Positions 7,047 through 31,084 are shown, counted from the stretch's first letter. The stretch: 64,000 bases of DNA from an uncultured Bacteroidales bacterium (GCA_900317125.1 ONFR01000020.1:345-64344), one strand, 5' to 3'. Made by a program: numbers and translations. The notes: a model not told the origin generated them from the letters alone.

Positions 7047-8231
7047 ATGAGAAAACCACTGTTCCCTCTCGACCCGATAAAAGCACGGTATTATTATCCG
7101 GGCAAGAATTTTACTGAGACGGGGAGTGAGGGATGCGATAAACTTGACCCAGAGACAATTGAGGACGAAGACGTAAAGCGGATGTTTCTGGAGGTAGAGA
7201 CAGAGCCAATCAAGCAGGTCTACCGTTGGATGATGGACCATCGCGACGACTTTGCTCCTACCACATTGGTGCTTGGACTGAAAAACAACGGCAGAGACCC
7301 TATCCCCGAACGCGAAAACGGGGAACTGTATCACGCCATCCTGGTCCAGCGCCCCTTGCACACGGTGTATGAGTTAGACATCTTCCTTGCCAATGTCAAC
7401 AGGCATTTGTCGGAGGGTGGCTATCTGGTGTGCAACTGCCGCACCTCATCGGTAAAGAAGGCCGTGATATACCGCAGCTACCCCAGAGGAATAAACAGGC
7501 TGTACTATGGGTTCCACTATGTGTGGCACCGTGTGTTTCCGAAGATAAAAGGTCTGAAAAACATCTATTTTGCTGTTACCAAAGGTCGCAACAGAACATT
7601 CCACCGAGTGGAGATTCTTGGAAGACTCTACCATGCAGGATTCGAAGTGGTGTATGAGAGCACTGCCCATGGCGAATTCAGGGTAATCGCCCGCAAAGCG
7701 AAAGACCCCATCACCGAAGGCACGCCGAGTTCATCGCCCATCGCCAAGCTGGAACGTGTGGGCAAAAACGGCAAGATTATCACTGTATACAAGTTTCGCA
7801 CGATGTATTCATACAGTGAATACCTGCAGGAATATGTCTACGAACACCGAAGGCTGGACAAAACAGGCAAGTTTTACCACGACTACAGGGTGAACACAAT
7901 GGGTGCCTTGCTCCGCAAAACCTGGCTGGACGAACTGCCGATGGTGGTGAATATGCTGAAAGGAGAGATGAAACTGGTGGGGGTGAGACCCCTGTCGCGA
8001 CAGTTTTTCAGCCTCTATACCCCCGAGATGCAGGAATTGCGCACCAAGACCAAACCCGGCCTGCTACCCCCGCTTTATTATGAGAAGGTGCAGCCTGACA
8101 CGCTGGAAGGCATCCAAGAGTCGGAACGACGCTATCTGGAAGCATACCTCAAACACCCTCTGCGCACAGACTGGAAGTACTTCTGGGGCATACTGGGCAA
8201 CATTTTTTTGAATCATAAACATTCACACTGA
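7047..8231 (+). CDS. Phosphoglycosyl (initiating sugar-phosphate) transferase catalytic domain fused to an N-terminal methyltransferase-like soluble domain
   Basis: The C-terminal half carries 'RVGKNGKIITVYKFRTM', 'LDELPMVVNMLKGEMKLVGVRPL' and 'KPGLLPP', the bacterial sugar transferase (PglC/WbaP-type) motifs. No hydrophobic helix is visible in the N-terminal ~220 aa. Confidence 0.7.
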   Translation: MRKPLFPLDPIKARYYYPGKNFTETGSEGCDKLDPETIEDEDVKRMFLEVETEPIKQVYRWMMDHRDDFAPTTLVLGLKNNGRDPIPERENGELYHAILVQRPLHTVYELDIFLANVNRHLSEGGYLVCNCRTSSVKKAVIYRSYPRGINRLYYGFHYVWHRVFPKIKGLKNIYFAVTKGRNRTFHRVEILGRLYHAGFEVVYESTAHGEFRVIARKAKDPITEGTPSSSPIAKLERVGKNGKIITVYKFRTMYSYSEYLQEYVYEHRRLDKTGKFYHDYRVNTMGALLRKTWLDELPMVVNMLKGEMKLVGVRPLSRQFFSLYTPEMQELRTKTKPGLLPPLYYEKVQPDTLEGIQESERRYLEAYLKHPLRTDWKYFWGILGNIFLNHKHSH

Positions 8232-12569: not shown

Positions 12570-13601
12570 ATGATTGACAAAAACACCCGCCAAGTGAACA
12601 TCCTATTTACATCTGCCGGACGCCGGACATACATCATCCATTATTTCCAGCAAGCCCTGAAAGGGAGGGGCAAAGTGTTTGCCTCCAACAGCATCTACAC
12701 CTACACCCTCGGGCAGGCCGACGGCCATACTCTCACCCCCGAGATCTACAACCCCGACTACATCCCCTTCCTCCTGCAATACTGCAAAGCAAACAGCATC
12801 ACCGCCATCATCCCGCTGTTCGACATCGACCTGCCCATACTCGCCAAACACCGCACCCTTTTCGAACAAGAAGGCATCACACTCATCGTATCGGACTATC
12901 CCGTTGCCCAGACATGTAACGACAAGTGGGCCACATACCAATTACTCAAGCAGGCGGGACTGAACCAGCCGCCTACATTCCTCAGCCTGGCCGATGCCAC
13001 AAAAGCCATCGACACGGGCTCCGTCGCATTCCCACTCATCGTCAAACCCCGCTGGGGCATGGGCTCCATCGGCATCTACACCACCCGAAACCGCGAAGAG
13101 CTCAACGTCCTCTATGCCAAATTACGCAACGACATCTGGGATACCGCCCTCCGCTTCGAATCCGCCGCCGACAAAGAGGCCAGCATCATCATCCAACAAC
13201 AGATCAAAGGCCAGGAATACGGCATCGAAATACTCAACGACCTCCAAGGCCACTATGCAGCCACCTTCGCCAAAAAGAAAATAGCCATGCGCTCGGGCGA
13301 GACCGATGTGGCCGAGACCGTGGACCCCACCCCCTTCCTGCCCATTGCTCAGACACTGTCGTCGCATCTCAGGCACCGTGCCATGCTCGACGTCGACTGC
13401 TTTGTCTCCCCCTCGGGCGACATTACGGTACTCGAAATGAATTGTCGCTTCGGCGGTCAATACCCGTTTACCCACAACGCAGGTGTCAACGTCCCCCTGC
13501 AGCTGGTCCGCTGGCTCCAAGGCCTGCCCACCGACCCCGCGCTACTCACCCAACGTTGCGGCGTCCGCAGCTGCAAGGACATCAACCCTGTCATCTTCTA
13601 A
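12570..13601 (+). CDS. ATP-grasp domain ligase
   Basis: 'ILFTSAGRR', 'FPLIVKPRWGMGSIGI', 'IIQQQIKGQEYGIE' and 'VLEMNCRFGG' give the ATP-grasp pattern. Confidence 0.7.
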   Translation: MIDKNTRQVNILFTSAGRRTYIIHYFQQALKGRGKVFASNSIYTYTLGQADGHTLTPEIYNPDYIPFLLQYCKANSITAIIPLFDIDLPILAKHRTLFEQEGITLIVSDYPVAQTCNDKWATYQLLKQAGLNQPPTFLSLADATKAIDTGSVAFPLIVKPRWGMGSIGIYTTRNREELNVLYAKLRNDIWDTALRFESAADKEASIIIQQQIKGQEYGIEILNDLQGHYAATFAKKKIAMRSGETDVAETVDPTPFLPIAQTLSSHLRHRAMLDVDCFVSPSGDITVLEMNCRFGGQYPFTHNAGVNVPLQLVRWLQGLPTDPALLTQRCGVRSCKDINPVIF

Positions 13602-13607
13602 CCCCTC

Positions 13608-14531
13608 ATGCCCACACCTGCCTCCACCCAGCCACTCGTCAGCATCTGCTGCCTGGCTTATAACCAGAAAGACTATATCCGCCAGGCAATCGAAGGTATG
13701 CTCATGCAGCAGACCGCCTTCCCCACCGAAATCATCATCCACGACGATGCCTCCACCGATGGTACCGACCAGATAATACGCCACTACGTAAAACAATATC
13801 CCGAGCGAATCACTGCCTTCTACGAAGAAACCAACCAATACTCCGCAGGCTACAAAGGCCGCATGGCCGTCACATTCCTCTATCCCCATGCCAAAGGGGA
13901 ATTCATCGCCTACTGCGAAGGCGACGACTACTGGACCGACCCGCTCAAACTCCAGAAACAAGTCGACTTCATGCAGGCCCACCCCGACTACTCGGTCTGC
14001 TTCCATCGCTGCACACACCTCAACATGGTCAACGGCACCTCCTCCCCCGACCTCTGTGGGAACCTAATACCAAAAGGAGAACAAGGTGTCGACATCACCC
14101 TCGACATGTTTTTTGCCGACTGGATCACGCAACCGCTCACCATGCTCATGCGCAAAAGCATGTTCAGCTACTCCTGGCAAAACCGATACAAATACTATCG
14201 CGACTCGCACGAGATCTACCACCTCCTCCTTGCAGGACGCGGACGGCTCATGGCCTTCGACGGCGGCGTCTACCGCATCCATCCCTCCGGCATCGCCTCC
14301 CTCAACACACCGCAGCAATATTGCGAGAACTACCTCCCCCTCGACCGCGAATTCTTCCACGTCACCCACAGCTCCCACGCCCGCCGCATCTACTGCCAGA
14401 CACTTCAGTCCTGTTCCGAATACTACACCCCCGTCAACAAAGCCAAAGCGCTCCGCTTTGCGCTCACCCAATTCCTCCTCAACTGGAAATACAAAACCCT
14501 ATTCAAAAACATCACCCGAATATACCGATGA
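13608..14531 (+). CDS. Glycosyltransferase family 2
   Basis: 'VSICCLAYNQKDYIRQAIEGMLMQQT...IIIHDDASTDGT' and 'CEGDDYW'. Confidence 0.8.
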   Translation: MPTPASTQPLVSICCLAYNQKDYIRQAIEGMLMQQTAFPTEIIIHDDASTDGTDQIIRHYVKQYPERITAFYEETNQYSAGYKGRMAVTFLYPHAKGEFIAYCEGDDYWTDPLKLQKQVDFMQAHPDYSVCFHRCTHLNMVNGTSSPDLCGNLIPKGEQGVDITLDMFFADWITQPLTMLMRKSMFSYSWQNRYKYYRDSHEIYHLLLAGRGRLMAFDGGVYRIHPSGIASLNTPQQYCENYLPLDREFFHVTHSSHARRIYCQTLQSCSEYYTPVNKAKALRFALTQFLLNWKYKTLFKNITRIYR

Positions 14532-16072
14532 CCACCTTCCAGCAAGTCATACTCACCCCCCTCCTCGACAGCATCACCGCCCATGCCGACGGTGAAGCCC
14601 TGCTCATCAACAGCGAGTCATACACCTACCGCCAACTCGGCCAACGCATCAGCGCCATACGCCACGCACTCCAACAGCAACAAATCCACCACCAAATCGT
14701 CGCCCTGCTTCTCGACGACCATATCGACACCTACGCCTCCATCATCGCCCTTTGGTTCGAAGGGAATGCTTATCTCCCCCTTAACCCACGGTGGCCCGAA
14801 CAGCGCAACCTCGACATCATCCACCAAACATCGGCCAAGCTACTGCTCTACACCGACCCGAACGCACCCATCCTGCAACAGTTCTCAACCATCGGAACCT
14901 CCGCCATACCCACCACCACACTACCCACACCGTCCAGTCAACAATCGGCACCTTACCCCACCGACGACAACGACCTGGCTTACATCCTGTTCACCTCCGG
15001 CAGTACAGGCAAACCCAAGGGCGTCTGCATCACACGCGACAACCTCGCCTCCTTCATCCAGTCGTTCTGGCACACCGGCATCAACATCACCTCGTCCGAC
15101 CGATGCCTCCAAGCCTTCGACCTCACCTTCGATGTCAGCATCCAGACCTTCCTCACCGCATTCATTCCAGGAGCCTGTCTCTGCACCATCCCCACCGCAC
15201 AAGTCAAGTACCTTTACGCCGCCATGCTCATCACAGAGCAAGGCATCACCTGCGCAGCCATGGCTCCATCCATGCTCACCTATCTTCGCCCATACTTCAG
15301 CCAACTGGATGCCTCAAGCCTGCGCACCACCATTCTCACTGCCGAAGCATGCCCTGCCTATCTTGCACAAGAATGGTCCAAATGTGCCGTAAACACACAA
15401 ATCTTCGACCTCTATGGACCCACCGAGGCCACAGTCTACAGCACCTGCTTCCACCTGCCCACACCCTACACCGACAACACCCCCAACGGCATACTGCCCA
15501 TCGGCAAACCGCTTCTCAATATCGACGCCATCATCATAGACTCCGACTTAAATCCGCTCCCCGCCAACCACGAAGGCGAACTCTGCCTCGCAGGCCGCCA
15601 AGTCACTCCGGGCTATTGGCAAAATCCCTCTCAAGATGCTACCGCATTCATCACCACACCCGACGGCAAGCGCTACTACCGCACAGGCGACCTATGCACA
15701 CTCCTCCCCGACGGCAACATCCTCTACCACGGACGCATCGACCAACAAGCAAAAATACAGGGATACCGTGTGGAACTCGGCGAGATAGAACACCACGCCG
15801 CCACCTATCTCAAACATCACTCCCGCACCGTTGCAGTCACCTACCAAAGTCCTCAGGGCCTTGACCAGATTGCTCTATTCATCGAGGATGACCCCGATAC
15901 CCACACCTCCAACGACAACGACCTACTCGACCACCTCAAAACCTTGATGCCCCAATACATGATACCCTCGTGCATCATCCATCACTGTCCTTTGCCGCTC
16001 AACAACAATCAGAAAATCGACCGCAACGCTCTGAAGACCATCATCAGCCAACATGCCACAAAGAATGCTTAA
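14528..16072 (+). CDS. Stand-alone amino-acid adenylation enzyme (DltA/NRPS A-domain-like, ANL superfamily)
   Basis: Core motifs 'LAYILFTSGSTGKPKGV', 'LYGPTEATV', 'GELCLAGRQVTPGYW', 'YRTGD', 'GRIDQQAKIQGYRVELGEIE' and 'NQKIDRNAL'. ATGA overlap with the upstream GT2. Confidence 0.8.
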   Translation: MTTFQQVILTPLLDSITAHADGEALLINSESYTYRQLGQRISAIRHALQQQQIHHQIVALLLDDHIDTYASIIALWFEGNAYLPLNPRWPEQRNLDIIHQTSAKLLLYTDPNAPILQQFSTIGTSAIPTTTLPTPSSQQSAPYPTDDNDLAYILFTSGSTGKPKGVCITRDNLASFIQSFWHTGINITSSDRCLQAFDLTFDVSIQTFLTAFIPGACLCTIPTAQVKYLYAAMLITEQGITCAAMAPSMLTYLRPYFSQLDASSLRTTILTAEACPAYLAQEWSKCAVNTQIFDLYGPTEATVYSTCFHLPTPYTDNTPNGILPIGKPLLNIDAIIIDSDLNPLPANHEGELCLAGRQVTPGYWQNPSQDATAFITTPDGKRYYRTGDLCTLLPDGNILYHGRIDQQAKIQGYRVELGEIEHHAATYLKHHSRTVAVTYQSPQGLDQIALFIEDDPDTHTSNDNDLLDHLKTLMPQYMIPSCIIHHCPLPLNNNQKIDRNALKTIISQHATKNA

Positions 16073-16113
16073 AAACATTTCAAAACAATATCACCAATAA
16101 TCATTCATCACAA

Positions 16114-16359
16114 ATGACGCGCACGGAACTCATAGCAACCATCCAACCCCTTGCCAGACAGATCTTCTCCAGCCCCGACCTCGAAATTACCGACCAACTC
16201 GGACCGGCAAACCTCCCCGCCTGGACATCCCTCACCTTCACACAACTGCTCACTGCACTTGAGGATACCCTCAACATTAAATACAAGATGATGGAAATTA
16301 TCAAGATGCAGAATATGGGAGCCATCATCGACATCACGCTCCACCACCTCAACGCATAA
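16114..16359 (+). CDS. Small acyl/peptidyl carrier protein (DltC-like)
   Basis: 81-aa acidic helical protein directly after the adenylase. The candidate phosphopantetheine site lies in 'AWTSLTFTQLL' (Ser within a DSL-like motif). Confidence 0.6.
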   Translation: MTRTELIATIQPLARQIFSSPDLEITDQLGPANLPAWTSLTFTQLLTALEDTLNIKYKMMEIIKMQNMGAIIDITLHHLNA

Positions 16360-16368
16360 TTCCTAGAA

Positions 16369-17436
16369 ATGGAATCCGTCGAGATAAAGACATACTCAGC
16401 AAAAGAACTGCTGCAATGGCTCAACACCGGCCATAGCACCCCCTTTGGCCCTAAAGGGGTCATATCGCCGTCGCGAGCACTGGCCTTTGCCAACAACCCC
16501 TATGTCGACCCCGACGATCCCATTGCCTGCGCTTTGTTCGTGGCAACCTCGTCCGGACAACCCGCACTGGTTGCATACACCGCTGCATTCCCCGACATGG
16601 TGGGCAATCAACGCATGTGGTGGTTTAGCACCCTTTGGTGCCACCCCGAGCACCGGGGGAAAGGGTACCCGCTGGCACTTGTGGGCACACTGGCTGAACA
16701 CTATGGACCCGAAAACTGTCTCGACACCATGGGCGCAGCCGAAACTGTTGAGATATTTCGCTTCCTTGGCCACCAAGTGTCATACCTCCACGAGCACCGT
16801 TTCGGAAGTAAAATACAGCGTGGCGGTCTTCGCGGCCACATCCTCTACCAGCGGGAGCAACTCCGCACATTCTTGCGCAGACATAACGCTCGAGCCCTCC
16901 GTGCGATCAATCATTCGACATATACACTGCAATACATCGACCTGATTGATGACGACACATACAGTCTCATCCAGCGTCAATCGGCCAACGACCTCTTCCC
17001 GCGTACACGCGAAACATTCAATTGGATACTTCAATATCCCCTGAAACACTGCACGCCGCTTCCCCATCGCACCTCTTCACGCGGACTATTCGGCGATAGC
17101 GACCCCCTCTACTGGCTGCGGGGAGTCAAAGTAATGCACGGCGATGAAACCATTGGATTCTATATCATCCGCAACGCCGAGTCGGACCTTTCCGTTAAAT
17201 ACCTCTACTATGCCGAACCCTACCGTGACCAGGTTTTCACCTCCATTGTCGAGCACATACTCCATTTTGGGAACTCCTGTTTCGCCACACGCCATACGGA
17301 ACTGGCAAACTACATAGCTGCAACGAAACTATTCAAAAGCCATAAAATCGCAGACATCTCCCTCTCCTGCCCCAAGGGATTCAGTCTGAACCCATCAGGC
17401 AGCACGCAAGGAGGCGATGGCGACTGTTTTGCCTGA
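16369..17436 (+). CDS. Two-lobed GNAT-like acyl/aminoacyl transferase (hypothetical)
   Basis: 'WWFSTLWCHPEHRGKGYPLALVGTL' resembles the GNAT motif A (R/Q-x-x-G-x-G/A). At 355 aa it is the size of a duplicated GNAT or Fem-like fold. Confidence 0.45.
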   Translation: MESVEIKTYSAKELLQWLNTGHSTPFGPKGVISPSRALAFANNPYVDPDDPIACALFVATSSGQPALVAYTAAFPDMVGNQRMWWFSTLWCHPEHRGKGYPLALVGTLAEHYGPENCLDTMGAAETVEIFRFLGHQVSYLHEHRFGSKIQRGGLRGHILYQREQLRTFLRRHNARALRAINHSTYTLQYIDLIDDDTYSLIQRQSANDLFPRTRETFNWILQYPLKHCTPLPHRTSSRGLFGDSDPLYWLRGVKVMHGDETIGFYIIRNAESDLSVKYLYYAEPYRDQVFTSIVEHILHFGNSCFATRHTELANYIAATKLFKSHKIADISLSCPKGFSLNPSGSTQGGDGDCFA

Positions 17437-17454: not shown

Positions 17455-18177
17455 ATGCCAATGTCCACTACAAGGTTGCTTAACAAAATAGACCGTCGGC
17501 TCACGCAGCTCACCCTTGCTCCGATCGAAGTATTTGTGTTCCATTGCGTATCGGACACCTTCGACCCCTCGCTCTGTCAGCGGCAGGACTGGACGCCCAC
17601 CAACTATTTCAAACATCAAATACAACAACTCAAAAGTCAGTATACCTTCATTCCCCTCCCCGAGGTATACCATCGGCTGACGCACGACCGATTCCGTCGA
17701 ACCAAGTATGCCGCCCTCACCTGCGACGACGGCAATGCCTCCATCCTCTCCATCCTTCCTTTCCTCTCCTCCGAACAGGTACCCGTAACCCTGTTCATCA
17801 ATCCAAAATATCTCGACGGTATCAGCATCCGTGAAAACTACTGCAGCAATCCACTCTATATTACCCTCGACCAACTGTCTGCTATACAATCGCCCATGGT
17901 GAACATTGCCCTGCACGGCTTCAAGCACGACGATTGCACGCTCATGTCCCGCGCCGATTTCGATGCCTCCGTGTCCAAGTGCGAAGAATTATTAAAACAA
18001 CATCCACGCTATATTAATTATTATGCGTACACATGGGGGAGGTACAACGACACCACACAGTCCGTACTACGCGAACGGAACATCATACCCCTCTTCTGCG
18101 ACGGAGCCTCCAACCGCCGATACAGGGACGGAATCAGCCGCAGGTGTATCGATACCCCCGGCACCGTAAGGCTTTAA
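17455..18177 (+). CDS. Polysaccharide deacetylase (CE4/NodB-like)
   Basis: 'ALTCDDGNASI', 'VPVTLFINP' and 'ALHGFKHDD'. Confidence 0.6.
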   Translation: MPMSTTRLLNKIDRRLTQLTLAPIEVFVFHCVSDTFDPSLCQRQDWTPTNYFKHQIQQLKSQYTFIPLPEVYHRLTHDRFRRTKYAALTCDDGNASILSILPFLSSEQVPVTLFINPKYLDGISIRENYCSNPLYITLDQLSAIQSPMVNIALHGFKHDDCTLMSRADFDASVSKCEELLKQHPRYINYYAYTWGRYNDTTQSVLRERNIIPLFCDGASNRRYRDGISRRCIDTPGTVRL

Positions 18178-18190
18178 CACCCCACTTCTC

Positions 18191-19312
18191 ATGCTACCAC
18201 GACGAAAAGACCTATACAACATCCCCGGATGGCACACCCGCCGACGGCTTGTCGTCATCGAATCCGACGACTGGGGAAGCATCCGAACCCCCTCGACGGA
18301 AGCCTACAACAACCTGCTGAGCCAAGGTATCCGTGTAGACCGCGACCCTTATTGCCGTTACGACAGTCTCGCCACACCGGGCGACCTGTCCAATCTCTTC
18401 GAGGTGCTCCATGCTGTGAAAGACTCCAACGGGAATCCCGCCGTGCTCACCGCCAATTGTGTGACGGCCAATCCCGTCTTTGAAAAGATTGAACAATCGG
18501 GGTTTAACGAATACTTTTTCGAACCCTTCCCCGACACGCTGCAGCGTGACGCTTTGCACAGCGGGTCGTTCGCACTCTGGAAGGAGGGCATGGCAAAGGG
18601 TGTATTCCATCCCCAGCTGCATGGTCGCGAACACCTGAACGTGCAGAAATGGCTCCGGGCTCTCCGGAGCGCAGAATCAGCCACTCTTGCCGCTTTCAAG
18701 GTCGGTTCCTTCGGACTGACACAGATTGCAGCTCCCTCAATCAAAGAATACTATATGGGGGCTTTCAATTCCAGCCTACCAGAAGACACAGCGCGCTACG
18801 CAGCCATCATAAACGAGGGTGCCGACATGTTTCAGCAACTGTTCAACTACCGGTCAGAGTCGTTCATTGCCACCACCTACGAGTGGCACCCCGACCTCGA
18901 GCCCCATCTGTCGGCGGTGGGTGTGAAATACCTCCAAGGCACCGTGTGCCAGAAGATACCTATCGGCAACGACGAAGGGGTGACAATGCACCGGCGCTGT
19001 TTCCAAGGACGCCGCAGCCCCCACGGACTAATATACTTGATGCGCAACTGCTTGTTCGAACCCTCACTCCGGCCAACTATCGACAGCGTAGACCAATGCC
19101 TGCAACATATCCGGACAGCCTTCCGTTGGGGAAAGGCGGCCAATATATGCACCCATCGAGTGAATTTCATCGGCTCTATCGACCATCGGAACACCGACCG
19201 GACCTTGCCTGCTCTCCGCACATTGCTTCAAGAAATAACCAAGCGTTGGCCCGACTGCGAGTTTGTCACCTCCGACCAACTTGGTCGCATTATACAGGGT
19301 AAAAGCCGCTAA
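18191..19312 (+). CDS. Hypothetical protein, deacetylase-like (glycoside hydrolase/deacetylase superfamily, DUF2334-like)
   Basis: 'VVIESDDWGS', 'QLHGREH' and 'THRVNF' are spaced like the metal-binding residues of CE4-related folds. The functional assignment is weak. Confidence 0.4.
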   Translation: MLPRRKDLYNIPGWHTRRRLVVIESDDWGSIRTPSTEAYNNLLSQGIRVDRDPYCRYDSLATPGDLSNLFEVLHAVKDSNGNPAVLTANCVTANPVFEKIEQSGFNEYFFEPFPDTLQRDALHSGSFALWKEGMAKGVFHPQLHGREHLNVQKWLRALRSAESATLAAFKVGSFGLTQIAAPSIKEYYMGAFNSSLPEDTARYAAIINEGADMFQQLFNYRSESFIATTYEWHPDLEPHLSAVGVKYLQGTVCQKIPIGNDEGVTMHRRCFQGRRSPHGLIYLMRNCLFEPSLRPTIDSVDQCLQHIRTAFRWGKAANICTHRVNFIGSIDHRNTDRTLPALRTLLQEITKRWPDCEFVTSDQLGRIIQGKSR

Positions 19313-21204: not shown

Positions 21205-22602
21205 TTGGTACCTTTCTTCCCAAAACAATTATCCACTAAGGCCATTACGCTTTATCTCGTGTCGCTGGCCATAGTGAGCATTATCTTTGTACGCCTGATG
21301 ATGAAGTTTGATTTCATCATCATCGGCATCATGTGGGTGTTGGTCTTTTTCCTGCTCTCGGCGAGGTTCACACGCAAGTGGGTGGATTTAGATGAGAAGC
21401 ATTATTGCCGTAAGGTGTTCTGGACCGCGCTGTGGCTGCGACTGGCATGGGTGGTGTTCTCGTTCTTCTTCTTCACCTTCAAGACGGGTGTACCCTTTGA
21501 ATTCGGGTCGAGCGATGCGTTGGGTTATCACAACGAGGCGCTCTGGTTCCAGGAAATAGGATGGAAGGCGGCACGCGACTACCTGTCACGACGCTCGCTT
21601 GCCGATGCCGGCTATGTCACCTATCTGGGATTGCTCTATTCTGTAACGGGTGGCAGTATTATTGTGACGCGTATCATCAAGGCGTTGCTAAGCAGCTGGA
21701 TGTGCCTGCTCATTTACAAGCTTGCCAAGCGCAACATGGGCGAAGAGGTGGGCAGGATGGCCGGTATTTTCTGCTGCCTGATGCCCAATCTGATTATGTA
21801 CTGTGGTTTGCACCTCAAGGAGACAGAAATGATTTTCCTCTGCGTGGCCACCCTAGAGCGGGCCGACAGTCTGCTACGCAGCAGTAAGTTTAATTTCTGG
21901 AAACTGCTTGTCACGGTGTTGTTGGCGGTGAGCTTGTTCTTCTTCCGCACGGTCTTGGGCGCCACTACGATATTTGCCATCTTGACGGGGCTGGTGTTCT
22001 CGTCGAGTGCTGTGATGAGCAGATGGAATAAGGTGGTGCTGATCTCGTGGGCAATAATAGGGCTGGGGGTGATGGCTGGCGGCAGCATTGCATCGGAGGC
22101 ATTGAGTGTTTGGGAGGGGCGCAACGAGAACCAGGCGGCCAAGCGCGACTACCAAGTGTACAAGGGCATTAAATGGGCCAAATACGCAACGGGGTCGGTG
22201 ATGGCTCCCATCATGTTCGTCATGCCGTTCCCCACGATGGTAGACGTAGACCAGCAGTACAACCAGCAGCTGATGAACGGAGGAAACTATGTCCGAAACT
22301 TTTTGGGTATCTTTGTGTTGATAGCGTTGTTCAGTTCGATTTTCGTGCTCAAGAACTGGCGCGACCTGTCGATGCTTTGGGCCTTCCCAGTATCGTACCT
22401 TGGGGTTGTGTGTATGAGCGGCTTTTCCAATTCGGAGCGTTTCCTGCTACCGGGTCTTCCGTTCCTGCTCATGCTGTCGGCATATGGTGTGAGTCTGATG
22501 AATGCCCGTAATTTCAGATGGGTGAAGGTGTGGTATTGGGTGGTTCCAGTGATGGTGATAGGTTGGGCTGTGTTTAAACTGGGTTCGAGAGGACTGTTGT
22601 GA
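21205..22602 (+). CDS. Polytopic membrane protein, either a GT-C-like glycosyltransferase or an O-antigen-polymerase-like protein
   Basis: About 11-12 hydrophobic segments, with 'GSSDALGYHNEALWF' in the first loop. The TTG start at 21205 is uncertain; the first ATG is at 21298, but hydrophobic sequence precedes it. Confidence 0.55.
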   Translation: MVPFFPKQLSTKAITLYLVSLAIVSIIFVRLMMKFDFIIIGIMWVLVFFLLSARFTRKWVDLDEKHYCRKVFWTALWLRLAWVVFSFFFFTFKTGVPFEFGSSDALGYHNEALWFQEIGWKAARDYLSRRSLADAGYVTYLGLLYSVTGGSIIVTRIIKALLSSWMCLLIYKLAKRNMGEEVGRMAGIFCCLMPNLIMYCGLHLKETEMIFLCVATLERADSLLRSSKFNFWKLLVTVLLAVSLFFFRTVLGATTIFAILTGLVFSSSAVMSRWNKVVLISWAIIGLGVMAGGSIASEALSVWEGRNENQAAKRDYQVYKGIKWAKYATGSVMAPIMFVMPFPTMVDVDQQYNQQLMNGGNYVRNFLGIFVLIALFSSIFVLKNWRDLSMLWAFPVSYLGVVCMSGFSNSERFLLPGLPFLLMLSAYGVSLMNARNFRWVKVWYWVVPVMVIGWAVFKLGSRGLL

Positions 22603-23897: not shown

Positions 23898-24887
23898 ATG
23901 AAGAATATGAACAATACACTGAAAACCGTAGGACTGCCCATCTCGCACAAAGAGAATGAGAAGAGAAGAGCGTTGGTGCCTGCCCACATAGCCCGGATGG
24001 CACATCCCGGCCAGATTTTCATCGAGAAGGGATACGGTGATGTGCTCGGATTCTCCGACGAGGAGTATACAAAACTGGGAGTGCATGCTGTATCACGTGA
24101 GGAGACTCTGGACAAGGATATCGTTGCCGACCCCAAGATAGGCGATGCCGAATATCTGGACTCGCTTCATGACCAGACAGTCTTCGGCTGGCTGCATGCG
24201 GTTCAGAACCGGGACATCACAGACAAAATCATACAAGGCCACCTCTCAGCCTATGCGTGGGAAGACATGTATGAATACGGCCGCCATTGTTTCTGGCGCA
24301 ACAACGAGATTGCTGGCGAGGCTGCCGTAATCCATGCCTATATGTGCCATGGGGTGTTTCCTTACAACACCAAAGCGGCAGTGCTTGGACGAGGCAACAT
24401 CGCCCGTGGCGCCGTTAAGACCCTTAACTATATGGGGGCCGAGGTGGTGCAGTACGACCGCAAGACGGAGGGTCTGTTCCGCAAAGAGCTTGGCGACTAC
24501 GACGTGATAGTGAACGCCATCCTTTGGGACACGTCGCGCAAGGACCATATCCTCTACCGCGATGACCTCAAGCGGATGCGGAAGGGGGCTATGATTATCG
24601 ATGTGTCGTGCGACAGGAATGGCGGCATAGAAACCAGTGTTCCTACCACTATCGACAACCCCATCTACGTGACAGAAGGCGTGACGCACTATGTGGTTGA
24701 CCACACGCCTTCCCTTTTCTGGAAAACAGCCACCGAAACCTTAAGTGAAGTATTTGTCCGATACATCGATTTCCTGATAGAGGATATCCCTCTGAAAAAC
24801 GACGTGTTGAAAAATTGCCATAGTTTCGAACAGGGCAGGATATTGGATAAGCGCATTGCTGAATACCAGGGCAGGGCTCTCGTATAG
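23898..24887 (+). CDS. AlaDH/PNT-fold dehydrogenase resembling N5-(1-carboxyethyl)ornithine synthase (opine-type synthase)
   Basis: 'AAVLGRGNIARGAVKTL' (NAD(P) loop), 'YDVIVNAILW', 'MIIDVSCDRNGGIETS' and 'DNPIYVTEGVTHYVVDHTPSL'. The order and spacing match my recollection of Lactococcus CEOS. Confidence 0.55.
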   Translation: MKNMNNTLKTVGLPISHKENEKRRALVPAHIARMAHPGQIFIEKGYGDVLGFSDEEYTKLGVHAVSREETLDKDIVADPKIGDAEYLDSLHDQTVFGWLHAVQNRDITDKIIQGHLSAYAWEDMYEYGRHCFWRNNEIAGEAAVIHAYMCHGVFPYNTKAAVLGRGNIARGAVKTLNYMGAEVVQYDRKTEGLFRKELGDYDVIVNAILWDTSRKDHILYRDDLKRMRKGAMIIDVSCDRNGGIETSVPTTIDNPIYVTEGVTHYVVDHTPSLFWKTATETLSEVFVRYIDFLIEDIPLKNDVLKNCHSFEQGRILDKRIAEYQGRALV

Positions 24888-30331: not shown

Positions 30332-31084
30332 ATGGACTTCACTATCGATAAATACTGCCAATTCCTTGATGCCCTCCTACAGAGCGGCATGTCGTTCAAG
30401 CTGCGGCACGATGTCGACCGGCTCCCGGCAAACTCATTGCGCACCGCTCAGCTAGAAAAGGAAAGGAATATAGCTGCCACCTACTATTTCCGATGCGTTC
30501 CCGAAAGCTACAATCCTGACATCATCAAACAGATAGCCAAATTGGGGCACGAAATAGGCTATCACTATGAATCACTCACAACACGCAAAGGAAACCTCGA
30601 AGAAGCCTTCTTGGACTTCTGTCGAAACCTCGAAGTATTGCGTAGTCTCGCTCCTGTACACACCATCTGCATGCACGGTTCTCCACGCAGTCCTTGGGAC
30701 AGCCGCGACCTATGGAAACATTTCGACTACCACAGCTTGGGAATTGACTATGAGCCATACCTCGACACCGATTTCTCCGACAAGCTATACCTCACTGACA
30801 CTGGAAGACGTTGGGACGGCTACCATGTCAGCTTGCGCGATAAGATACCGCAATACCAAGACCAATGGGACCGCCAAGGTCTTTCCTTCCACACTACCGA
30901 CCAAATCATTGCACAACTGCTCGACCCTGATTCGACCCTTCGTCGTACGGGCTATACACTGCTTATCACCACCCATCCCCAACGCTGGAACCCCTTTGGG
31001 ATGCGCTATTTAACGGAACTAGGCACTCAAACACTGAAAAATGTAGTCAAACACTATCTTATACGAAAAAAAACCAATCATTGA
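30332..31084 (+). CDS. Hypothetical protein, polysaccharide-deacetylase-like
   Basis: 'FKLRHDVDRLP', 'ATYYFR' and 'GHEIGYHY' give a CE4-like pattern. The ATG at 30332 lies 2 nt after the DUF354 stop. Confidence 0.45.
   Translation: MDFTIDKYCQFLDALLQSGMSFKLRHDVDRLPANSLRTAQLEKERNIAATYYFRCVPESYNPDIIKQIAKLGHEIGYHYESLTTRKGNLEEAFLDFCRNLEVLRSLAPVHTICMHGSPRSPWDSRDLWKHFDYHSLGIDYEPYLDTDFSDKLYLTDTGRRWDGYHVSLRDKIPQYQDQWDRQGLSFHTTDQIIAQLLDPDSTLRRTGYTLLITTHPQRWNPFGMRYLTELGTQTLKNVVKHYLIRKKTNH

Follow-up and report, generated by a model that had tools for sequence, protein, structure and literature searches.

Two routes are understood by which amino acids are placed on bacterial envelope polymers, namely, the Dlt and Alm systems, in which an adenylase and a carrier protein supply a membrane acyltransferase, and the Vim system, which combines a deacetylase with a Fem-like transferase and for which the donor is unknown. 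In the Wbp/Vim pathway of Porphyromonas gingivalis and Tannerella forsythia (VimE, VimA, and VimF), the CE4 protein VimE takes an N-acetyl group off a sugar, after which VimA adds Ser or Gly to the freed amine, yielding an N-aminoacyl sugar of a surface glycan (Veith et al. 2020, PMC7468200). Exchange of vimA between the two species alters the amino acid, and VimA was reported to match pepcterm_femAB (TIGR03019); the amino-acid donor was not established (PMC7468200). The linking sugar of Prevotella intermedia is an N-alanyl deoxyhexose, and this species was found to lack VimA and VimE; according to the authors, it is not known how the alanine is transferred (PMC11969387). Here, we analyze a 64,000-nucleotide stretch of DNA from an uncultured rumen Bacteroidales bacterium (GCA_900317125.1, ONFR01000020.1:345-64344; referred to as the window), in which a GT2 glycosyltransferase (GT2a), a stand-alone adenylation enzyme (A), a carrier protein (CP), a 355-aa protein of an unnamed family (X), and a CE4 polysaccharide deacetylase are encoded side by side within a glycan operon. 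We consider the chances about even that this GT2-A-CP-X-CE4 block serves to exchange an N-acetyl for an N-aminoacyl group on an amino sugar, in a glycan that is assembled in the cytoplasm and exported by Wzm/Wzt. An earlier interpretation made from the sequence without database searches (the sequence-only reading) had taken aminoacyl decoration to be undescribed for Bacteroidales surface glycans. This was too broad, given that the VimE/VimA swap and the N-alanyl deoxyhexose have been published (PMC7468200, PMC11969387) and that N-seryl, N-glycyl, and N-alanyl sugars are already known in Porphyromonas, Tannerella, and Prevotella.

The five genes lie on the plus strand, with GT2a at 13608-14531 (PF00535, 70.5 bits), A at 14528-16072 (514 aa), CP at 16114-16359 (81 aa), X at 16369-17436, and the CE4 deacetylase at 17455-18177 (240 aa; PF01522, 46 bits). 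They are followed at 18191-19312, on the same strand, by the gene for a second deacetylase-fold protein of 373 aa (Y). The end of GT2a overlaps the start of A by 4 nt, 9 nt separate CP from X, and the intergenic gaps range from -4 to 41 nt from Wzt through the first GT2 gene after Y. The module proteins are soluble, with neither signal peptides nor membrane helices. The proposed swap builds on several observations, namely, the family assignments, the integrity of the residues for catalysis and attachment, this solubility, and the linkage of the genes. The gene positions, the strand, and the tight packing had been given correctly by the sequence-only reading, and the searches described below also bore out its amino-acid-type adenylase, the 81-aa carrier with a potentially modifiable serine, the two-lobed GNAT-like nature of X, and the two deacetylase-like genes that follow.

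A scored above the cut-off of the TIGR01733 model "amino acid adenylation domain" (335 bits; cut-off 317.4), matched PF00501 (218 bits), and contains core motifs A3 to A10, including FDVS, YGPTE, and KIDR. Its best solved relatives are adenylation domains of nonribosomal peptide synthetases (NRPS), and acyl-CoA ligase models scored far lower than TIGR01733. Scores below the respective cut-offs were obtained with the DltA equivalog models TIGR01734 and NF003417 (248.2 bits, cut-off 559.85; and 257.1 bits, cut-off 476) and with the exosortase A/PEP-CTERM ligase model TIGR03098 (191.5 bits; cut-off 592.35). The ten specificity positions, derived by HMMER alignment with LgrA and FscH together with the motif positions, read D V Q A I T L V Y K. 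Across 21 loci, only two single exceptions depart from the pattern D V Q A I T F/L I/V Y K, and the equivalents of Asp235 and Lys517 are invariant. The presence of the latter two residues leads us to expect an alpha-amino acid as the substrate, and the near-invariance of the string indicates that one substrate is used throughout the family. The solved domains nearest to the pocket segment include FscH, LgrA module 2, EntF, and AlmE, with the AlmE structure 4oxi among the closest solved sequences to the pocket region (E 4e-8). These four enzymes activate Ser or Gly, and the FscH pocket residues read off the alignment correspond to the Ser code; the pocket residues of A are unlike those known for DltA. 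The pocket neighbors thus hint at a small amino acid, for which Gly, Ala, and Ser are our leading guesses.

The carrier protein gave only weak profile matches (PF00550, 15.6 bits; cut-off 20.8) and matched the solved "putative acyl carrier protein" 2lml (E 3e-7), in which the Ser of AWDSL lies under Ser39 of the AWTSL motif of CP. The serine of W-T-S-[LFY] was invariant in 20/20 CP orthologues, and three distant members carry WDS. Ser39 is accordingly annotated here as the putative phosphopantetheine site, and the genome contains one gene for a phosphopantetheinyl transferase.

For X, Pfam returned a weak GNAT match (PF00583, residues 55-121, 24.5 bits). An AlphaFold2 model built with 43 homologues (predicted local distance difference test [pLDDT] 92.3, predicted template modeling score [pTM] 0.91) has the two lobes of a tandem GNAT, and Foldseek retrieved only two-lobed GNATs with it (probability 1.0; TM 0.4-0.54, ~12% identity), namely, NMT, Eis, the MprF/A-PGS domain, the aminoacyl-tRNA-dependent Sba18, and VipF. 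Based on this model, we are confident that X is a tandem GNAT. The glycine-rich beta4-alpha3 loop of GNAT proteins is the binding site for the pantetheine pyrophosphate, and X contains a loop R-G-K-G-Y-P/G between strand 81-91 and helix 100-112, in which G97 and G99 are invariant. The C terminus of X, QGGDGDxF[VA], is kept to the last residue and may recall that of NMT, whose catalytic base is the terminal carboxylate. None of the 43 members of the X family matched an NCBIfam model. Assignment to the FemAB/VimA/pepcterm_femAB type was rejected, since 0/43 members match TIGR03019 and hhalign against the FemAB-like protein of the genome gave a probability of 1.3%; a NodA-family match for X was not found either.

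Residues D91, D92, H154, and H158 of the CE4 deacetylase were invariant among 22 orthologues, and its family, intact catalytic residues, and constant linkage to X suggest that it would free the acceptor amine. Y gave neither a profile match nor a PDB sequence match and was placed by fold search only. Its AlphaFold2 model (pLDDT 89.6) was matched by Foldseek to 3rxz (a putative deacetylase), ArnD (8t0j), GH57 enzymes, and chitin deacetylases, its motifs ESDDWG and HGREH are invariant, and its family is large and unnamed (6,035 homologues).

The word-indexed search for X returned 82 clusters, all of them metagenomic. When 1.84 billion representatives were scanned in full with the profile, 1,023, 710, and 99 of them matched at thresholds of E <= 1e-3, E <= 1e-10, and E <= 1e-30, respectively. 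The X family comprises ~700 clusters at 50% identity, and relatives of X were present in 42 of the 401 sampled genomes of the order. The named loci all belong to uncultured rumen or gut Bacteroidales, Paludibacteraceae, Candidatus Colimorpha, or Candidatus Enterocola, and all 21 named loci as well as the 6 clusters that were looked up derive from metagenome-assembled genomes, with no cultured host among them.

Enough flanking DNA was available for 27 related loci, of which 23 are centered on X and 4 on A. The GT2-A-CP-X-CE4 block was kept across these 27 loci, down to 25% identity of X. CP lies directly upstream of X in 22/23 X-centered loci and stays there even when other genes (1-3 kb) part A from CP. 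A is present in 20/23 X-centered loci, and two of the three exceptions are truncated contigs; an orthologue of GT2a directly precedes A in most related loci (240-680 bits). The A family is much larger than that of X (3,084 homologues at E <= 1e-60), and 4/4 independently sampled A homologues were found in the same block. In every locus examined, the block is flanked by glycosyltransferase genes and follows Wzm/Wzt, its genes being packed with overlaps of 4 nt and gaps of single-digit length, and three minimal loci (L017, L027, and L028) consist of GT2-A-CP-X-CE4 and glycosyltransferases only. This arrangement is not due to chance.

The most constant partner of X is the CE4 deacetylase, which is next to X in 21/23 close loci and in 28/37 loci of the wider X family. 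The two deacetylase-like genes had been listed by the sequence-only reading as mere followers of the module, and this does not do justice to CE4. In the 37 wider-family loci, a 340-aa CE4 protein adjoins X in those 28, A is present in ~10 and CP in 12; where these two occur, they lie between CE4 and X, and CP immediately precedes X. The wider cassette (L037-L067; e.g., L059 7169-12784) has the order 315-aa protein, 340-aa CE4, A, 258-aa GNAT, CP, and 365-aa X relative and occurs in ~10% of the sampled genomes of the order, with the A-GNAT-CP part present in roughly one quarter of those. The 315-aa protein, common in the wider family, was considered as a VimA-like protein and rejected, as it had no NCBIfam match. 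Taken together, CE4-X is the deepest core of the cassette, the genes that build the donor are exchangeable (A-CP, A-CP-SDR-CP-KASIII, or A-VOC-CP, with X and CE4 constant), and CP, when present, is wired to X.

Y is less constant, being found in 7/23 X-centered loci, with a DUF1919 protein in its place in others. The sequence-only reading had opened the module with the ATP-grasp ligase encoded at 12570-13601 on the plus strand (PylC-like_N plus ATP-grasp_3/4; NF009404, 322.8 bits; cut-off 316). Its orthologue occurs in the same arrangement in only 2/23 X-centered loci (L003 and L006), and other ATP-grasp types or none are found elsewhere, so that synteny removes this ligase from the module and leaves it merely in the operon. 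Y, the ATP-grasp ligase, and an AlaDH/PNT-like enzyme encoded further downstream are variable accessories with a possible role in later processing of the sugar or of the newly introduced alpha-amine.

In the proposed swap, A would activate one small alpha-amino acid with ATP and thioesterify it to the phosphopantetheine arm on Ser39 of CP. The acceptor would be an N-acetylated amino sugar, i.e., an N-acetylhexosamine-type residue, either added by GT2a, the likely donor of the acceptor sugar residue, or supplied by the pathway. The soluble CE4 protein would strip the N-acetyl group to leave a free amine, and X would then form the amide, its N-terminal GNAT lobe accommodating the aminoacyl-pantetheine arm and its C-terminal lobe the sugar. 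The pairing of donor and acceptor, the amide product, the sugar, and the identity of the amino acid are the parts of this scheme that we infer. X is the proposed aminoacyl transferase because it is the only acyltransferase-fold protein that constantly accompanies the CP gene in the close family. Because all module proteins are soluble, a cytoplasmic reaction is plausible, and the whole swap would take place ahead of Wzm/Wzt export. The constancy of CE4 beside X speaks for the exchange of an N-acetyl for an N-aminoacyl group and against a generic acylation. A GNAT-like transferase and a cytoplasmic aminoacylation had also been envisaged by the sequence-only reading. The former gains from the pyrophosphate loop and from the position of CP, with the reservation that the loop fits acyl-CoA too; the latter keeps its plausible location, and its generic acylation gives way to the swap.

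The Vim pathway resembles this cassette in several respects, since it occurs in the same phylum, pairs a CE4 protein (the role of VimE) with an acetyltransferase-like protein that acts on the freed amine, and is linked to a glycosyltransferase. However, VimA is reported to match the TIGR03019 family and X does not, the Vim pathway includes neither an adenylation enzyme nor a carrier protein, and the host glycan of the present cassette is dependent on an ABC transporter. A WbpA/B/E/D-type gene set (2,3-diacetamido uronic acid) was absent from 6460-31084, where the sugar-nucleotide genes are Gmd, Fcl, and a TviC-like epimerase. The Nod factor pathway shares the order of events, in that the GT2 protein NodC makes an N-acetylhexosamine acceptor, the CE4 protein NodB deacetylates it in the cytoplasm, and NodA re-acylates it from a dedicated carrier (NodF). 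There, the acyl group is a fatty acid made by NodE/NodF and the product is a diffusible signal, as opposed to the A-loaded amino acid and the surface polymer proposed here; the logic is common to both, whereas the NodA family is not.

On the donor side, Dlt of Gram-positive bacteria uses a stand-alone adenylation enzyme that loads an amino acid onto a dedicated small carrier for the decoration of an envelope polymer, as is proposed for the cassette. The locus lacks the MBOAT protein DltB and DltD, and the predicted transfer takes place in the cytoplasm with an amine as the acceptor, whereas that of Dlt is extracytoplasmic and onto a hydroxyl. In AlmEFG of Vibrio cholerae, an adenylation enzyme and a carrier feed a small amino acid to an acyltransferase that acts on a glycolipid at the cytoplasmic face; AlmG is a membrane protein of the lipid A secondary-acyltransferase type and the target is lipid A (glycine), in contrast to the soluble tandem GNAT and the glycan considered here. 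No match to PF03062 (MBOAT) or DltD was present among the scanned proteins between 20 and 31920, and the locus contained no match to the lipid A acyltransferase family. The absence of an AlmG-type enzyme claimed by the sequence-only reading was thus confirmed, and that of an MBOAT protein holds for the locus but neither for the whole genome nor as a rule of the family, as four MBOAT genes are found on other contigs of the genome (C7, C13, and C33) and an adenylase is joined to an MBOAT gene in one related locus (L018).

NMT, Eis, the C-terminal domain of MprF/A-PGS, and Sba18 have in common with X the two-lobed GNAT fold and, in the case of NMT, the donor loop in the N-terminal lobe; in contrast, the acceptors of the known enzymes are peptides, aminoglycosides, or lipids. 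To our knowledge, none of these four takes its donor from a carrier protein. By family membership, the cassette falls outside Dlt (DltA, DltB/DltD), AlmG, VimA, Wbp, and NodA, and by analogy, it may be viewed as Vim/Nod logic on the acceptor side combined with a Dlt/Alm supply on the donor side. Our literature search returned nothing specific on a glycan system with adenylation enzyme, carrier, and deacetylase. We have not found described the NRPS-type A/CP donor, the X family as a transferase, or the setting in an ABC-transporter glycan locus.

The exchangeable donor genes take several forms. In L018 (4578-11059), A, with the same specificity residues, is followed by CP, an MBOAT protein (PF03062, 73.8 bits), a 299-aa orphan, a VOC/Glyoxalase_4 protein, a second CP, and X, so that a single donor module seems to supply two branches, one of them Dlt-like and the other leading to X. 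In L022 (6164-11062), L023 (6251-11053), and L025 (7001-11899), the order is A, 76-aa carrier, SDR, 82-aa carrier, KASIII, X, and CE4; here, the amino acid may be lengthened by two carbons and reduced on the carrier prior to transfer. L026 has the order A-VOC-CP-X, and the methylmalonyl-CoA-epimerase-like VOC protein located between A and CP (L026 8472-8888; L018 8742-9158) could epimerize the carrier-bound aminoacyl thioester, which would argue for a chiral substrate over glycine. Two X paralogues per locus were observed in L004, L005, and L008 (L008 6437-7495 and 9893-11050), parted by a DUF1919 protein, and L008 additionally contains an ATP-grasp protein of the L-amino-acid-ligase type between the two; such pairs may reflect a dipeptide side chain or acylation at two positions. 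The gene of a WbqC-family protein often lies ahead of GT2a (L002, L025, L026, and L027), together with that of a DegT aminotransferase in L002, L025, and L026, and the acceptor in these loci could be an amino-dideoxyhexose.

Several points weigh against the N-aminoacyl swap. The host organism is uncultured. X has no sequence relation to FemAB/VimA-type proteins that NCBIfam or hhalign could detect, and its GNAT pyrophosphate loop suits acyl-CoA just as well as carrier-bound pantetheine. Many X relatives have no adjoining A or CP, so a carrier is not demanded by the fold, and one close locus, L014, consists of CP-X-CE4 with the adenylase absent within 10 kb. Finally, the specificity code, which the sequence-only reading had proposed to predict, could be read in all ten residues, but DVQAITLVYK is not known to agree at more than ~6/10 positions with any specificity code. 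The Pro, Ser, and Gly types all fit in part.

Two alternatives appear unlikely to a similar degree. The first is a Dlt-like O-aminoacylation, in which a sugar hydroxyl would be esterified from the aminoacyl-CP donor, with X or an MBOAT protein encoded elsewhere as the O-acyltransferase, and the deacetylases would act in unrelated steps, for instance, by taking O- or N-acetyl groups off other parts of the repeat unit. The 248-257 bits of A on the DltA models speak for it, as do the four MBOAT genes elsewhere in the genome and L018, where the same adenylase precedes CP, MBOAT, and the 299-aa protein ahead of the second CP and X. However, A remains below the DltA equivalog cut-offs, an MBOAT gene is absent here and in 26/27 related loci, and the constant partner, CE4, yields an amine. 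Furthermore, the tandem GNATs of known function in the Foldseek list are mostly N-acyltransferases (NMT, Eis, and Sba18).

According to the second alternative, X would be an ordinary acyl-CoA-dependent N-acyl- or N-acetyltransferase, for example, one that caps the alpha-amine of the attached amino acid or re-acylates the sugar with a group carried on CoA, and the aminoacyl group would leave CP through an unrecognized enzyme. The canonical CoA-pyrophosphate loop in the N-terminal lobe of X is consistent with this, and so are the ~2/3 of the wider X family that have CE4 without a nearby A or CP and the lack of an adenylase in L014. The separate 258-aa GNAT between A and CP in the wider family shows that GNATs with other roles occur in such cassettes. 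Conversely, the close family offers no second constant acyltransferase-fold protein, the three minimal loci leave only glycosyltransferases besides the block itself, and CP keeps its place directly upstream of X (22/23) even where A lies 1-3 kb apart. Re-acetylation following CE4 would moreover amount to a futile cycle.

It is very unlikely that the substrate of A is an acid other than an amino acid (a hydroxy, keto, short fatty, or aryl acid) and that a plain acyl group is added, as in the tetronate or 3-hydroxybutyryl decorations of O-antigens. The combination of an adenylase with two carriers, SDR, and KASIII in L022, L023, and L025 is a set typical of short hydroxyacyl side chains, but the equivalents of Asp235, the alpha-amino-binding residue, and of Lys517 are invariant, A passes the TIGR01733 cut-off with acyl-CoA ligase models far lower, and its nearest solved relatives are all amino-acid adenylation domains. 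A product of A-CP-X unrelated to the glycan (an N-acyl amino acid, a lipoamino acid, or a small peptide), with co-location only, is highly improbable, for although GNAT-fold enzymes such as LuxI and FeeM make small molecules from acyl-ACP, the block lies among glycosyltransferase genes downstream of Wzm/Wzt with 4-nt overlaps in every locus, and no condensation, thioesterase, or small-molecule export gene is present.

The ABC-transporter-dependent glycan operon that hosts the cassette was delimited by Pfam and NCBIfam scans to 6460-31084 on the plus strand. Its first part encodes, in order, an UpxY-like KOW protein, a phosphoglycosyl transferase, Wzm, Gmd, Fcl, Wzt with Wzt_C, and the ATP-grasp ligase. 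GT2a, A, CP, X, CE4, and Y follow, and the middle part continues with two GT2 proteins, a GT-C-like membrane protein, and a GT4 protein. The operon ends with the AlaDH/PNT-like enzyme, the TviC-like epimerase, a further GT4 protein, a CapK-like ligase, an LbH protein, a DUF354 protein, and a last protein (30332-31084) that had no family match in the Pfam and NCBIfam scans. The initiating phosphoglycosyl transferase (7047-8231) matches Bac_transf at residues 231-347 and has no hydrophobic segment (maximal Kyte-Doolittle 19-residue mean of 0.91). The product of 21205-22602 is a 465-aa protein with seven predicted helices and faint similarity to GT22/PMT_2, which is kept after the two GT2 genes in most related loci (465-1,027 bits). 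The AlaDH/PNT-fold enzyme (23898-24887) is encoded between GT4 and the TviC-like epimerase and is kept at 566-712 bits in at least seven related loci (L003, L006, L010, L011, L012, L018, and L027). The AlaDH/PNT fold family includes opine-type reductive condensing enzymes, and the free alpha-amine expected from the action of the module might be a substrate of this protein.

In Bacteroidota, a sugar amine is the attachment point for proteins secreted by the type IX secretion system. The genome encodes the PorU sortase (956 bits) and ~80 cargo proteins with the C-terminal domain (CTD) and therefore needs an amine-bearing anchor glycan. It is conceivable, if distinctly unlikely, that the cassette is an alternative route to this linking sugar, its free alpha-amine serving in the PorU-dependent attachment of the ~80 CTD cargo proteins. 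As a weaker extension, the AlaDH/PNT-like enzyme could convert the amine into an opine-type N-(1-carboxyethyl) group. A further locus of the genome, of the Wzx/EpsG type (contig C23 72000-92000; L036), encodes a FemAB-family protein (PF02388, 72 bits) and an adjoining pair of a GNAT (Acetyltransf_9) and a CE4-DUF3473 protein. This locus may be the Vim-type aminoacyl-swap system of the genome, and the linking-sugar role of the cassette is therefore raised only as a possibility. If it applied, the cassette would be the kind of pathway that is missing for the N-alanyl deoxyhexose of Prevotella intermedia.

Amino-acid-bearing sugars give surface glycans charge and free amines. If the N-aminoacyl swap is correct, the cassette would join the donor half of Dlt/Alm to the acceptor logic of Vim through an unnamed tandem-GNAT family and would define a new carrier-protein-dependent sugar N-aminoacyltransferase. 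It would also be a candidate route to the N-aminoacyl linking sugar in species for which no pathway to it is known and would enable the annotation of hundreds of glycan loci in gut and rumen Bacteroidales.

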